Positions 15,001 through 63,000 of a stretch of DNA of 64,000 nucleotides are shown here, piece after piece. This DNA comes from a virus (taxonomy: Duplodnaviria; Heunggongvirae; Uroviricota; Caudoviricetes). Position numbers: made by a program. The stretch's first letter is position 1, and the number at the start of each line of letters is the position of its first letter. The stretch lies in the IMG/VR virus record IMGVR_UViG_2721755646_000010; one strand, 5' to 3'.

Positions 15001-18000
15001 CAGTTTAACCTGACTGCCGCTGCGGCCCCGGAAAATGAAAACATGGCCGGACATGGGATCGTCTTTCAGCGCCGTTTGTACTTTCGCAGCCAGGCCGTTG
15101 AAGCCATTTCTCATATCGGTGATACCGGCAACCAGCCAAATTTTGGTCCCGGAAGGTAACGGGATCATCGCTTCAGTTCCTGTATCAGCAGAGTCAGGAG
15201 CTTTTCGCTGACATTGCCATTGAAGCGGAGCGTCCCGTGCCGGAACGTTACCTCACAGCTGATACTGAGGGTTTCCGGGTCCTCTGCGAGCGATTCTGGC
15301 TGTTCGGCAGCTGCATCGAGAGTCACAGGAAGTAGCTGGGGGCTCTCTGAAGAAGGTAATAGCAGCTTTCCCTCGCGCCATTGTTGTCGCCATTTGAACA
15401 ACAGATTGGCGTTAATGCCATTTTCAAGAGCAAGTTTTGAGATGGATATCCCGGGTTCACAGGAGGCAGCAACGAGCTGCTGTTTAAATTCGGGAGGATA
15501 ATTAGGGCAGCCTTTTCGCCTGCCGGGAGTCACATTTTTCTGCATATCTGATACTTTGGTTCCCACTACTTATTTGGTGGACACCACTTTGTCTAATTCG
15601 TCAGATTCTGACCAGACGGTTCAGGCTGTACGCTTACCTGATGTCTCACCGGCGCTGGTATCGAAGGTCACCGATGCCGTTATGGAGCAGGTAGTCGAAT
15701 GGCAAAACCGGCCACTGGATGCGGTCTATCCCATTGTTTATCTTGACTGTATTGTCCTGAAGGTTCGGCAGGACAGTCGCGTAATCAATAAATCCGTATT
15801 CCTCGCACTGGGTATCAATATCGAAGGCCAGAAAGAGTTACTGGGTATGTGGCTGGCCGAAAACGAGGGAGCGAAGTTCTGGCTCAATGTGCTGACTGAA
15901 CTAAAAAACCGCGGCCTGAACGATATTCTCATAGCCTGTGTCGACGGGCTGAAAGGCTTCCCGGACGCTATCAACACGGTGTATCCGGAAGCCCGCATCC
16001 AGCTGTGCATCGTGCATATGGTGCGCAACAGCCTGCGGTTCGTTTCCTGGAAGGACTACAAAGCCGTCACCCGCGACCTGAAAGCCATCTACCAGGCCCC
16101 CACAGAAGAAGCAGGCCAGCAGGCGCTGGAAGCGTTCGCCAGCGCCTGGGACAGTCGCTACCCGCAGATAAGCCGGAGCTGGCAGGCAAACTGGACCAAC
16201 CTGGCGATGTTCTTCGCTTACCCGGCAGATATCCGCAAAGTCATCTACACAACCAACGCCATCGAGTCGCTGAACAGCGTAATCCGGCATGCCATCAAAA
16301 AACGCAAGGTGTTCCCGACGGATGACTCAGTGAAAAAGGTCGTGTGGCTGGCAATCCAGGCGGCTTCACAGAAATGGACGATGCCACTGCGGGACTGGCG
16401 TATGGCAATGAGCCGCTTTATTATCGAGTTCGGTGACCGCCTGGACGGTCACTTCTGAGAAAAGGCATTTACACAGAATCGTGTACAGGGTCGATTTTAC
16501 TCGTTAATTAGCGAACAAACCACTCGTCAGCAGACTCCCAGGTATCTTTCAGCGTCTCCTGAACAAAAGTTTTTGCAGAATCTTTATCGGCGGTGCGAGT
16601 AACTGAAAGGCCATCGTTGCTGGTGGATTTGATGATCACTTCTACATCGTCATAACGTTTACTGACACGTCGCAGCATTTCTTGTTGCAGGGCAGGAACA
16701 GAACCTTTTGGCATTTTGTTGATTTTGGCTGCGGGGTATCTGTGGGGCATATATGGGACATAAAAAGGCCTCAAATAAACAGCAAAATCGAGATTAGGGA
16801 TTTTTAGAAAAAATACAACCATCTGAAAAAACTTAGAAAACACCCAAAAACCCACAGAATAGTAAAAAACATCTATGAATTATGGATTTCAAGAGTCATT
16901 CAATCTAACTAATTGATAAATAAAAAATTAACTTTTCATCGCTTCGTTATGGGGCATGGTTGGGGCAAACTCGCTTAACTGTGTATTTAACAGCGTTACC
17001 TGCGCATTATTATTTTCTGACATCCATTTCCCGTACACCTGAAACACCATTTGCGCATCTGCATGGCCCATCTGGTTTGCAATGAATGCCGGGTTAGCTC
17101 CTGCTGTTAACGACCAGCAGGCATAAGTGTGTCTCGACTGATACGATTTGCGATGGCGGATTCCGGCACGCTTTACCGCTGCGTCCCACATCTGCCTTAT
17201 TGAGTCAACGGTAAAATGGTCGCCATAATTTTTTACTTTCGCTGACACTTCAGGTTGAAAAACAAAGGTACATTTTTGTTTCTCTGTTCTGCCGAATTCT
17301 CTGAGGTGAACATCGATGATATGCTCTTTGCTCAGTCTCGTTAGTGCCATCTGACTCCGGAGAGCGTCGATTGCGGGCTTAATAAGGTGAATCACACGAT
17401 TGGTTCCCGCCTGTGTTTTTGGTACTGTAAAACGGTCTTTTGCCAGATTTCTTCTGATTATCATTCTGCCATTGCGCAAGATGGTTGCGGTTTTTCTTCA
17501 TCATTTTCTTCTTCTGTTTCCTGCTTAGCAGACAGTTCGCGGTTAACTTCTTCCAGGATATCTTTTTCCGGTGTATGTCGTGCAGCAGTGAGAGTTTCCT
17601 TGCTGGGGTTCTCGTGATCAGTCTCCGTTAAGTAGGCGTTGATATACCCCTGAAGGCGTCCCGGGTAGTGATAAAACTCAGGGTGAGCGCTCCGGATAAG
17701 TGCAAAAATAGCGGCGCGGGAATAGTCCAGAATACCCGGGGTTGCGCGAAGTGCTGCGGACCATTCTTTGAACGGACTTTCTCTTTTCAGGACGATTTCT
17801 TTTGCGCGACGATAAACGCTGCCCGGAATTTCATAAATATTAAAATCCATCGGAAGTGTGGCTGCTGCAATCTCCACATCCAGCGTATCGAAGGTGTGTA
17901 CTAAATTCGGATTGCGATCGGTTTTGTTCCCGCCACCGGCATTTGCACCGGAAGCCGTACGGGTGATACGCGAAACACGATTTCCTTTCATCCACTCTTT

Positions 18001-60000: not shown

Positions 60001-63000
60001 GGTGATACTGGATGCGGATAAAAAGCAGATACAGTGTGTGGTAAGACCGCTGCAAATCCTGCGTGCTGACGGGACGTGGGAAAATATTGGCGGGATGAAA
60101 TAGCCGACAGCTTCACAAAAACCGGAGTCCGGCTCCGGTTTTTTGTTGTCACGTATGGGGGATGTTTGTTACAGCTATTTAAGTCTGGAGTTCAAATTAA
60201 AATAGGGAGCTTTGTTATGCCATTAACCTCAGATATTAGATCACATTCATTTAATCTTGGGGTGGAGGTTGTTCGTGCCCGAATTGTAGCCAATGGGCGC
60301 GGAGATATTACAGTCGGTGGTGAAACTGTCAGTATTGTGTATGATTCTACTAATGGGCGCTTTTCATCCAGTGGCGGTAATGGCGGATTGCTTTCTGAGT
60401 TATTGCTTTTGGGATTTAATAGTGGTCCTCGAGCCCTTGGTGAGAGAATGCTAAGTATGCTTTCGGACTCAGGTGAAGCACAATCGCAAGAGAGTATTCA
60501 GAACAAAATATCTCAATGTAAGTTTTCTGTTTGTCCAGAGAGACTTCAGTGCCCGCTTGAGGCTATTCAGTGTCCAATTACACTGGAGCAGCCTGAAAAA
60601 GGTATTTTTGTGAAGAATTCAGATGGTTCAGATGTATGTACTTTATTTGATGCCGCTGCATTTTCTCGTTTGGTTGGTGAAGGCTTACCCCACCCACTGA
60701 CCCGGGAACCAATAACGGCATCAATAATTGTAAAACATGAAGAATGCATTTATGACGATACCAGAGGAAACTTCATTATAAAGGGTAATTGAAATGAACA
60801 TTACCATTTATTTTATTTAATGAAACATCCTGCAAACTGATATGAATTACTGAATGAGGTTTTTATGCCTGTTACCACCTTAAGTATCCCAAGTATATCT
60901 CAATTATCTCCTGCAAGAGTACAGTCTTTGCAGGATGCAGCCAGACTTGAAAGTGGAATAAGAATATCCATTGGTAGTGGCCAATATTCTGTTCACTATG
61001 TCCAACTACTGGATGGATTTTCAGTTGAACCGGTGAGAGGAGGCTTACTGGATAGGCTATTGGGGCGTGAGCATCGAATGGATAGAAGGGCTGTGGCTCT
61101 GGAAAGGCAATTAAATGGAGGTGTCGATTTTTTAAGTAGTGTTAATAACTATTTTCAGAGTGTCATGGCAGAACACAGAGAAAATAAAACAGGTAATAAA
61201 ATATTAATGGAAAAAATAAATTCTTGTGTATTTGGAACGGATTCTAATCACTTTTCTTGCCCGGAGTCATTTTTGACATGCCCGATAACGCTGGACACAC
61301 CTGAGACTGGAGTGTTCATGAGAAACTCACGAGGTGCTGAGATATGCTCTCTATATGATAAGGATGCGTTAGTGCAACTTGTTGAAACTGGTGGAACTCA
61401 TCCTCTGAGTCGAGAACCTATAACAGAATCAATGATTATGAGAAAAGACGAATGTCACTTTGATGCAAAAAGAGAAGCTTTTTGTTGTAAGTGATAATTA
61501 ATGCTATAAATATAGTTTTGTGTATTTTTATTTTTTACTAAAGCAAAATTAAATTATTAAAATGGAGGGAGAGGAATGCCTGTAGATTTAACGCCTTATA
61601 TTTTACCTGGGGTTAGTTTTTTGTCTGACATTCCTCAAGAAACCTTGTCTGAGATACGTAATCAGACTATTCGTGGAGAAGCTCAAGTAAGACTGGGTGA
61701 GTTGATGGTGTCAATACGACCTATGCAGGTAAATGGATATTTTATGGGAAGTCTTAACCAGGATGGTTTATCGAATGATAACATCCAGATTGGCCTTCAA
61801 TATATAGAACATATTGAACGTACACTTAATCATGGTAGTTTGACAAGCCGTGAAGTTACAGTACTGCGTGAAATTGAGATGCTCGAAAATATGGAATTGC
61901 TTTCTAACTACCAGTTAGAGGAGTTGTTAGATAAAATTGAAGTATGTGCATTTAATGTGGAGCATGCACAATTGCAAGTGCCAGAGAGCTTACGAACATG
62001 CCCTGTTACATTATGTGAACCAGAAGATGGGGTATTTATGAGGAATTCAATGAATTCAAATGTTTGTATGTTGTATGATAAAATGGCATTAATATATCTT
62101 GTTAAAACAAGGGCGGCTCATCCTTTGAGCAGGGAATCAATCGCAGTTTCAATGATTGTAGGAAGAGATAATTGTGCTTTTGACTCTGACAGAGGTAACT
62201 TCGTTTTAAAAAATTAAGATAGCAATGGCGGGTTAACTTTTCGTAAAATGAAATTAATTCTCGGTACAGCATGTAAAACGCGGCACCTCGTATGCAAGAA
62301 CGTGCTGCGGTTGGCTGGTGAACTTTCGATAGTGCGAGTATTGAATGATTTCCAGCCGTTACTGATTTTACTCGTTAATTAGCGAACAAACCACTCGTCA
62401 GCAGACTCCCAGGTATCTTTCAGCGTCTCCTGAACAAAAGTTTTTGCAGAATCTTTATCGGCGGTGCGAGTAACTGAAAGGCCATCGTTGCTGGTGGATT
62501 TGATGATCACTTCTACATCGTCATAACGTTTACTGACACGTCGCAGCATTTCTTGTTGCAGGGCAGGAACAGAACCTTTTGGCATTTTGTTGATTTTGGC
62601 TGCGGGGTATCTGTGGGGCATATATGGGACATAAAAAGGCCTCAAATAAACAGCAAAATCGAGATTAGGGATTTTTAGAAAAAATACAACCATCTGAAAA
62701 AACTTAGAAAACACCCAAAAACCCACAGAATAGTAAAAAACATCTATGAATTATGGATTTCCAGTTATATTCGCTCGGCGCAGCGTTAGTGTTTCATGAA
62801 ATATTTTTTCCTGAATCATCAACGGCAATGGCGTTAATTCTGGCAATGGGAACCTACGGTGCAGGTTATGTGGCGCGTATTGTCGGAGCATTTATTTTCG
62901 GCAAAATGGGCGACAGAATAGGGCGTAAAAAAGTGCTCTTTATTACCATCACCATGATGGGGATCTGTACCACCTTAATTGGAGTGTTACCGACCTATGC

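Follow-up and report, generated by a model that had tools for sequence, protein, structure and literature searches.

We analysed a 64,000-nucleotide stretch of viral DNA (IMG/VR record IMGVR_UViG_2721755646_000010, hereafter the window, with positions counted from its first letter) in which a 398-bp direct repeat marks the right ends of two adjacent prophages, which we call A and B. The window very probably represents a same-site tandem lysogen at the ydfJ attachment (att) site of Escherichia coli O157:H7, with prophage Sp12 followed by prophage Sp11. The repeat consists of about 250 bp of cargo bearing a DinI-like gene, about 133 bp of the P arm of a phage attachment site (attP), and a 15-19-bp core, TGAATTATGGATTTC; the integrases of both prophages are truncated, and two kinds of deletion product are present in natural genomes, one retaining A with a single repeat and one a chimera of the two prophages.

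The placement of the window in E. coli O157:H7 comes from megablast searches of 5,426 complete (finished) E. coli genomes, the panel behind all counts given here. Positions 10370-64000 are 99.998% identical to strain 180-PT54, from whose RefSeq record the gene annotation was borrowed; the features of 1-10369 differ from that reference strain, and annotation coordinates around 7797 are unreliable for the strain studied here. The annotation of strain Sakai labels one side of the middle junction "prophage Sp11" and the other "prophage Sp12", and since the Sakai record runs in the opposite direction to the window, prophage B (16891-62761, adjoining ydfJ) corresponds to Sp11 and prophage A, up to 16890, to Sp12. 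Two lambdoid prophages thus lie head-to-tail at ydfJ, as an initial annotation of the window had proposed. The middle junction is intact in 213 genomes of the panel and the right end of B joined to the truncated ydfJ (ydfJ') is present in 264; in some genomes IS629 may have entered the middle repeat copy, as it has in Sakai, which would account for part of this gap.

Structure of the 398-bp repeat

The initial annotation had described two near-identical copies flanking prophage B, the left one doubling as the right end of prophage A. Both points stand, and base-by-base alignment of 16493-16890 with 62364-62761 went further, as the copies match at 398 of 398 positions with no mismatch and no gap; a perfect match of this length cannot arise by chance in 64 kb. 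The identity ends sharply (C versus T just before the repeat, A versus C just after it) and the 100 bp on each side are unrelated. Copy 1 is followed directly by the P' arm and integrase remnant of B, and copy 2 by ydfJ from codon 29. The parts of the two copies are as follows.

16493-16890, no strand assigned: repeat copy 1 at the middle junction, right end of prophage A (Sp12), 100% match to copy 2
16493-16507: spacer after the end of an insertion sequence (IS), 15 nt
16508-16750, minus strand: DinI-like gene copy 1, 243 nt, 80 aa (WP_001120551.1, ECs_2218 in Sakai; Pfam PF06183)
16743-16875, no strand assigned: attP P arm copy 1, AT-rich, about 133 nt with approximate ends; homology to the attP of phage mEp460 begins at 16743
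16876-16890, no strand assigned: att core TGAATTATGGATTTC, 15 nt, middle junction (P-O-P'); homology to K-12 attL/intQ begins at 16876
62364-62761, no strand assigned: repeat copy 2 at the right junction, right end of prophage B (Sp11), 100% match to copy 1
62379-62621, minus strand: DinI-like gene copy 2, identical to copy 1 (Pfam PF06183)
62614-62746, no strand assigned: attP P arm copy 2; the K-12 Qin attR/ydfJ junction matches from 62614 at 95%
62747-62761, no strand assigned: att core, right junction (P-O-B'); genomes with an empty ydfJ match only from 62747 on

The repeat is long because both phages bear the same module of DinI-like gene and P arm beside attP. It is indeed far longer than an att core and holds a whole gene, as first noted, the core accounting for 15-19 of the 398 bp. 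We rejected the idea that the whole 398 bp is one extended att site, as only its last ~15 bp are common to the bacterial site attB. A scan of the repeat and the junction for promoter and terminator consensus sequences found nothing.

Many deposited records of Shiga toxin 2a (Stx2a)-converting prophages (LC727840 and similar) end in the DinI and P-arm sequence, with 100% identity over repeat positions 52-398 and two matching places per record. This suggests that Stx2a phages share the module or sit in ydfJ-type clusters.

The gene within the repeat had been called ydfK-like, and this label did not survive. The predicted product matched the DinI family in Pfam (PF06183; E-value 1.2e-17, 64.4 bits against a cut-off of 24.2) and scored 52 against the NCBIfam DinI equivalog, below its cut-off of 111; because of this last score the gene is a DinI-family paralogue rather than dinI itself. 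A BlastP comparison with K-12 YdfK gave no alignment at E-values up to 100, and the two proteins have no Pfam or NCBIfam family in common, so membership of the YdfK/YnaE cold-shock family was rejected. YdfK is its counterpart in position only, holding the equivalent slot as the last gene before attP in Qin and in mEp460.

Anatomy of the attachment sites

The comparison with empty and single-prophage ydfJ loci that had been proposed with the initial annotation was run, with strain NCTC86 as the empty site (ynfA-rspA-rspB-intact ydfJ-ydfI) and O55:H7 genomes as the single-prophage state. Set against the empty NCTC86 allele, ydfJ is interrupted in the window at the known attB (about codon 26-31). 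In a five-way alignment of attB, K-12 Qin attL, the middle and right junctions of the window, and K-12 Qin attR, the sequence TGAATT(T)ATGGATTTC was common to all five sites, with a gap-free identity of 11 bp, and this fits the 18-19 bp at which the att of ydfJ prophages has been set experimentally (Nakamura et al. 2021, PMC8112680). Past the core, the middle junction tracks Qin attL into the P' arm and int, whereas the right junction tracks attB into ydfJ. K-12 attL has the bacterial TTT variant of the core and K-12 attR the phage TT variant; strand exchange therefore takes place within the last 9-11 bp of the core.

Positions 16743-16927 are collinear with the attP of the free phage mEp460, and in the free phages mEp460, Tritos, HannyBb and PhiR42_1 16743-17473 is found unbroken, immediately upstream of int and extending into it. 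This identifies the middle junction, on sequence grounds, as a reconstituted complete attP (P-O-P'). The right junction, by the five-way alignment, supplies the attR of the locus (P-O-B'); attL is missing in related genomes, the left end of A lying outside the window.

The core at the right junction provides an in-frame ATG corresponding to Met29 of YdfJ, as it does in K-12, and an N-truncated YdfJ of 427 aa could be made if the phage P arm drives transcription.

Integrase remnants and the left end of prophage A

Two remnants lie at the left end of prophage B.

16891-17479, minus strand: P' arm and C-terminal 183 codons of the B tyrosine integrase, the N-terminal part and xis being deleted (PF00589; ECs_2217 pseudogene; collinear with mEp460 attP-int)
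17904-18705, minus strand: RecE-family exonuclease remnant abutting the integrase remnant at an internal deletion in B (ECs_2216 pseudogene)

The coding remnant of the B integrase (16928-17479, minus strand) retains its PF00589 match; its identity is 91% with K-12 intQ and 88.5% with mEp460 int. The A integrase is the converse, as only its N-terminal part persists, frameshifted and fused to nucleotide 86 of rspA, and the catalytic C-terminal part is gone. This left end was read from 180-PT54 (region L003, 7470-7556) and from two further regions (L012 and L013), where a deletion joins rspA nucleotide 86 to the truncated int; the whole of rspB and attL are lost in it, together with most of rspA and the 5' end of ydfJ. 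The reach of this deletion into rspA explains why some papers name rspA as the insertion site. Consistent with these truncations, Int was scored as defective in both Sp11 and Sp12, and no circular form of either was found in Sakai (Asadulghani et al. 2009, PMC2669165).

When aligned to the int region of O55:H7 strain CB9615, the B remnant (window 16928-17479) covers nucleotides 31-629 and the A remnant (L003 7536-8218) begins at nucleotide 699, so that two independent int truncations break within about 70 bp of one point. The near-coincidence may be chance or may mark an insertion/deletion hot spot.

Insertion sequences bordering copy 1

The left edge of copy 1 abuts the following element.

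12728-16492, plus strand: IS256-family element (ISEic2-type) interrupted by ISEc8 at 13196-15637 (inverted repeats; intact copy at the same site in O55:H7; Sakai repeat_region annotation)

The right inverted repeat of this element ends at 16492, and because its outer end abuts copy 1, the left edge of copy 1 is an insertion boundary and not a natural border of the module. The element lacks a target duplication (TTACTGAG versus GATTTTAC), and homology fails to resume on its left, where there is just a weak match (71% over 83 bp) inside nleG. On both grounds a simple IS256 insertion into a longer A/B homology was rejected.

ISEc8 lies inside the IS256-family element and is flanked by what looks like an 8-bp target duplication. 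Its insertion was present in the O157:H7 strains examined and was not found in O55:H7, and strain PV15-279 has IS1203 there; the insertion thus serves as a lineage marker. In Sakai the middle repeat copy is interrupted at the 3' end of its DinI-like gene by a further element, IS629/IS1203 (NC_002695.2, 2204371-2205680; L011 17310-18619), which shortens the unbroken homology there. The window is without that insertion.

Loss of prophage B and competing repeats

It had been proposed that recombination between the two copies, either att-mediated or RecA-mediated, could delete prophage B as a unit. The deletion itself is well supported, since the exact junction is present in natural genomes and laboratory deletions have been reported. 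When we modelled the product (right end of A, one repeat, ydfJ') it was found at 100% identity in the O157:H7 strains ECP19-798 and FRIK1989, and at a coverage of at least 80% the junction was present in eight genomes, with two more partial matches. The same junction without ISEc8 was found in five O55:H7 genomes, F3113 and 2013C-4465, and the O55:H7 form is probably the ancestral single-prophage state. ECP19-798 and FRIK1989 carry the ISEc8 insertion as tandem strains do, and ECP19-798, the one of the two whose left end was compared, also has the rspA'-int' deletion. FRIK1989 has been described as lineage I/II and ECP19-798 as very close to Sakai, and we favour a secondary loss of B in these two strains. 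PV15-279, for which Nakamura et al. (2021, PMC8112680) describe a different multi-prophage cluster, was left out of the B-deleted count.

The att-mediated half of that proposal fared less well. Because the integrases are truncated and no Sp11 or Sp12 circles are seen, site-specific excision is improbable without a helper, and homologous recombination remains. Loss or mobilisation of B by Int/Xis-mediated site-specific recombination between the middle P-O-P' and the right P-O-B' could draw on an intact core and P arm at both sites, on a middle P' arm collinear with a real attP, on an intact excisionase gene in A, and on related intact integrases in other E. coli and in free phages. Nevertheless we consider it very unlikely: the B integrase is without its N-terminal half and B is without xis, the A integrase is frameshifted and lacks its catalytic part, no circles of either prophage were detected in Sakai even with mitomycin C (PMC2669165), and the route could operate only if a superinfecting phage with a matching att type provided Int in trans.

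The prophages share further homologies besides the 398-bp repeat. For a full A/B comparison the left part of A was taken from 180-PT54, as it lies outside the window, and the perfect direct blocks measured 3,591, 652, 651 and 398 bp, which makes the repeat the fourth-longest. The three longer blocks lie partly outside the window and belong to colinear homologies, among them a 6.2-kb stretch with 97.3% identity. The modelled product of a crossover in the 3,591-bp block was present at full length and 98.7-99.8% identity in 22 O157:H7 genomes. Strain RIMD 0509939, for example, has a single chimeric prophage between rspA' and ydfJ', composed of the left part of A, the head genes of B and the right-end nleG/DinI module of B, with some A-type tail proteins. 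The 398-bp repeat is thus not the main recombination substrate, and the longer repeats gave rise to more of the natural deletion derivatives. Published work includes both laboratory deletions in Sp11-Sp12 and a 50-kb indel by homologous recombination that affected an Sp11/12-like compound prophage within one patient. Three classes of deletion, one of them a precise loss of Sp11, have reportedly been obtained at about 8e-4 and attributed to homologous recombination.

Origin of the tandem

O55:H7 is the lineage from which O157:H7 arose. It has one prophage at ydfJ, the CB9615 copy of which has intact int and xis genes, and the right end of the O55:H7 prophage (nleG7, an intact IS256 transposase, the DinI-like gene, att and ydfJ') is 99.9-100% identical to that of A. 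Based on these matches, we propose that an ancestor of A was resident at ydfJ and ended in nleG7, the IS256-family element, the DinI-like gene, the P arm, the core and ydfJ'. B, another lambdoid phage with the same integrase and att type, would then have entered by recombination of its attP with the attR of A in the last ~11 bp of the core, leaving a reconstituted attP between the prophages and a new attR beside ydfJ'. Since both phages carry the DinI-like gene and P arm before the core, the module is now present twice, and it shows as 398 bp because in A the homology is broken off by the IS256-family element. Later truncation of both integrases would have ended site-specific excision in cis and left RecA-type homologous recombination between direct repeats as the remaining route, with a crossover in the 398-bp repeat giving precise loss of B (A, one repeat and ydfJ') and a crossover in the longer A/B homologies giving a single chimeric prophage. 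Here we infer the order of integration, the Int-mediated entry of B and the dependence on RecA; tandem integration of this kind has been seen for Sp10 entering beside Rac (Asadulghani et al. 2009, PMC2669165).

Several points weigh against this account. The head and tail module of A differs from that of the O55:H7 prophage, so A is no simple descendant of the latter and an extra module exchange is needed. The secondary loss of B in ECP19-798 and FRIK1989 is argued from shared derived markers and lineage statements rather than from a tree, and the 3,591-bp repeat was measured with 180-PT54, a strain whose near-identity to the window does not extend to 1-10369. As the copies are identical the point of crossover cannot be mapped, and gene conversion or a homologous entry of B would also be compatible with them. 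Finally, RecA dependence is not a property that can be read from sequence, and we attribute the deletions to it conditionally.

Homologous entry is the rival closest to the proposed Int-mediated integration: B may have come in by recombination through the DinI-P-arm or another shared module and not by Int acting at the core. The module is 100% identical in the two prophages, a single crossover with a circular phage would yield the same map, and homologous exchange is frequent among these prophages. Against this, the switch to ydfJ at one junction and to P' at the other coincides precisely with the core, the pattern seen in K-12 Qin and predicted for an attP x attR reaction, and Int-mediated tandem integration at attR was seen experimentally for Sp10/Rac (PMC2669165). 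The two routes give identical products that sequence does not separate, and we regard homologous entry as unlikely. That a single ancestral prophage was duplicated and its copies then diverged, the 398-bp repeat being a relic of the duplication, would account for the synteny of A and B and for collinear homologies spaced 45.6-49.3 kb apart, yet it is highly improbable, as A and B are distinct phage genomes with head modules of different type and divergent early regions. The packaging and head genes of A are of HK97 type, with a large capsid fusion, a morphogenesis protein of the HK97-gp10 family and a different portal, and those of B are of lambda type, with a portal, an S49 peptidase, a decoration protein and the major capsid protein; the early regions are just 81-94% identical or have no detectable similarity, identity reaches 100% in few blocks, and O55:H7 has a single prophage. 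That the repeat or the tandem is an assembly artefact can be practically dismissed: we found no evidence in support of it, and the genomes counted above for the middle and right junctions (213 and 264) were finished independently. Later integration of B into the attR of A is the simplest reading.

Relation to known systems

The tandem, its dead integrases, the att sequence and the recombinational instability of the locus have already been published, and the repeat is an ordinary outcome of same-site tandem lysogeny. What is added here is the division of the repeat into cargo, P arm and core, the relabelling of its gene as DinI-like, and counts of both deletion classes in finished genomes. The closest system is Sp11/Sp12 of Sakai (Hayashi 2001; Asadulghani 2009, PMC2669165; Chen et al. 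2013, Appl Environ Microbiol 79:1934), which agrees with the window in its locus, prophages and truncated integrases, in the DinI-like gene (ECs_2218) and in the IS256::ISEc8 nest found at the junction, and in which deletions of the region were already described. The two differ in that the middle copy of Sakai carries IS629/IS1203, whereas A in the window has a variant tail module at 1-10369. K-12 Qin and its free relative mEp460 use the same ydfJ attB and the same core, with 95% identity in the P arm and about 89-91% in the P' arm and int; however, they represent a single prophage whose gene closest to attP is ydfK, accompanied by pin and tfa, and not a DinI-like gene with nleG genes. Campbell-type tandems at one att, such as Sp10 beside Rac, likewise have P-O-P' in the middle, P-O-B' on the outside and a direct repeat of P arm and core, but here the attL of A has been lost in the deletion from rspA nucleotide 86 into the A int. 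Prophage-in-prophage integration at an effector-locus attB (Nakamura et al. 2021, PMC8112680) involves the same strains, ydfJ clusters and accumulation of nleG genes; in that mechanism the incoming phage uses a copy of attB inside a prophage, whereas here both phages use the chromosomal ydfJ att in a traditional tandem.

The locus carries type III effector genes of the nleG family and is one source of variation in genome size and in pulsed-field gel electrophoresis (PFGE) and long-read profiles among O157:H7 isolates, and knowledge of the repeats that drive its deletions is of help when outbreak typing is interpreted. We think it improbable, though worth stating, that the P-O-P' and P-O-B' sites are still functional substrates, such that a phage of the mEp460/PPydfJ type could provide Int and Xis in trans and excise or mobilise B with its three nleG genes as a circle, or stack more phages at the site. 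If so, the DinI/att repeat would be a recurrent assembly point for effector-carrying prophage clusters and not a passive scar.

Other features of the window

The prophages and the flanking gene have the following extents.

1-16875, plus strand: right part of prophage A (Sp12), with tail genes, lom, tail fibre, nleG pseudogene, nleG7, IS elements, DinI-like gene and P arm (180-PT54/Sakai annotation)
16891-62746, plus strand: prophage B (Sp11), with int', recE', dicB, truncated repressor, replication genes, Q region, tRNAs, lysis genes, lambda-like head and tail genes, three nleG/DUF1076 genes, DinI-like gene and P arm (180-PT54/Sakai annotation)
62753-64000, plus strand: ydfJ' (MHS-family MFS transporter), without codons 1-28, starting at an in-frame ATG within the att core and running past the window end

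B has the layout of a full lambdoid prophage, with lom and tail fibre genes between its lambda-type tail genes and the nleG/DUF1076 trio. Two tRNA genes lie downstream of Q, one with the anticodon CAT at 31075-31150 and a tRNA-Arg(tct), argO, at 31251-31327. The former was called tRNA-Met by ARAGORN and is annotated as tRNA-Ile (ileZ) in RefSeq and Sakai, and an ileZ-argO pair is the usual tRNA cluster 3' of Q in lambdoid prophages of enterohaemorrhagic E. coli.

The tail module of prophage A (1-10369, from the tape measure to the tail fibre) is unlike its 180-PT54 counterpart, with 98.8% identity over 1-4909 and a non-collinear arrangement over 4910-10369. Neither 1-10369 nor 1-12000 was found as one piece in any genome of the panel; the closest full-length match to 1-10369 was to an O145:H28 prophage, at 98.5% identity in four pieces, and the region looks like a recombinant module. 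A family of 70-nt repeats occurs at 7797-7866, 10825-10894, 11471-11540 and 60104-60173, the copies at 10825, 11471 and 60104 sitting in the interval between tail fibre and nleG genes. The repeat contains a GC-rich hairpin followed by a run of T (AAAAACCGGAGTCCGGCTCCGGTTTTT) and looks like a terminator.

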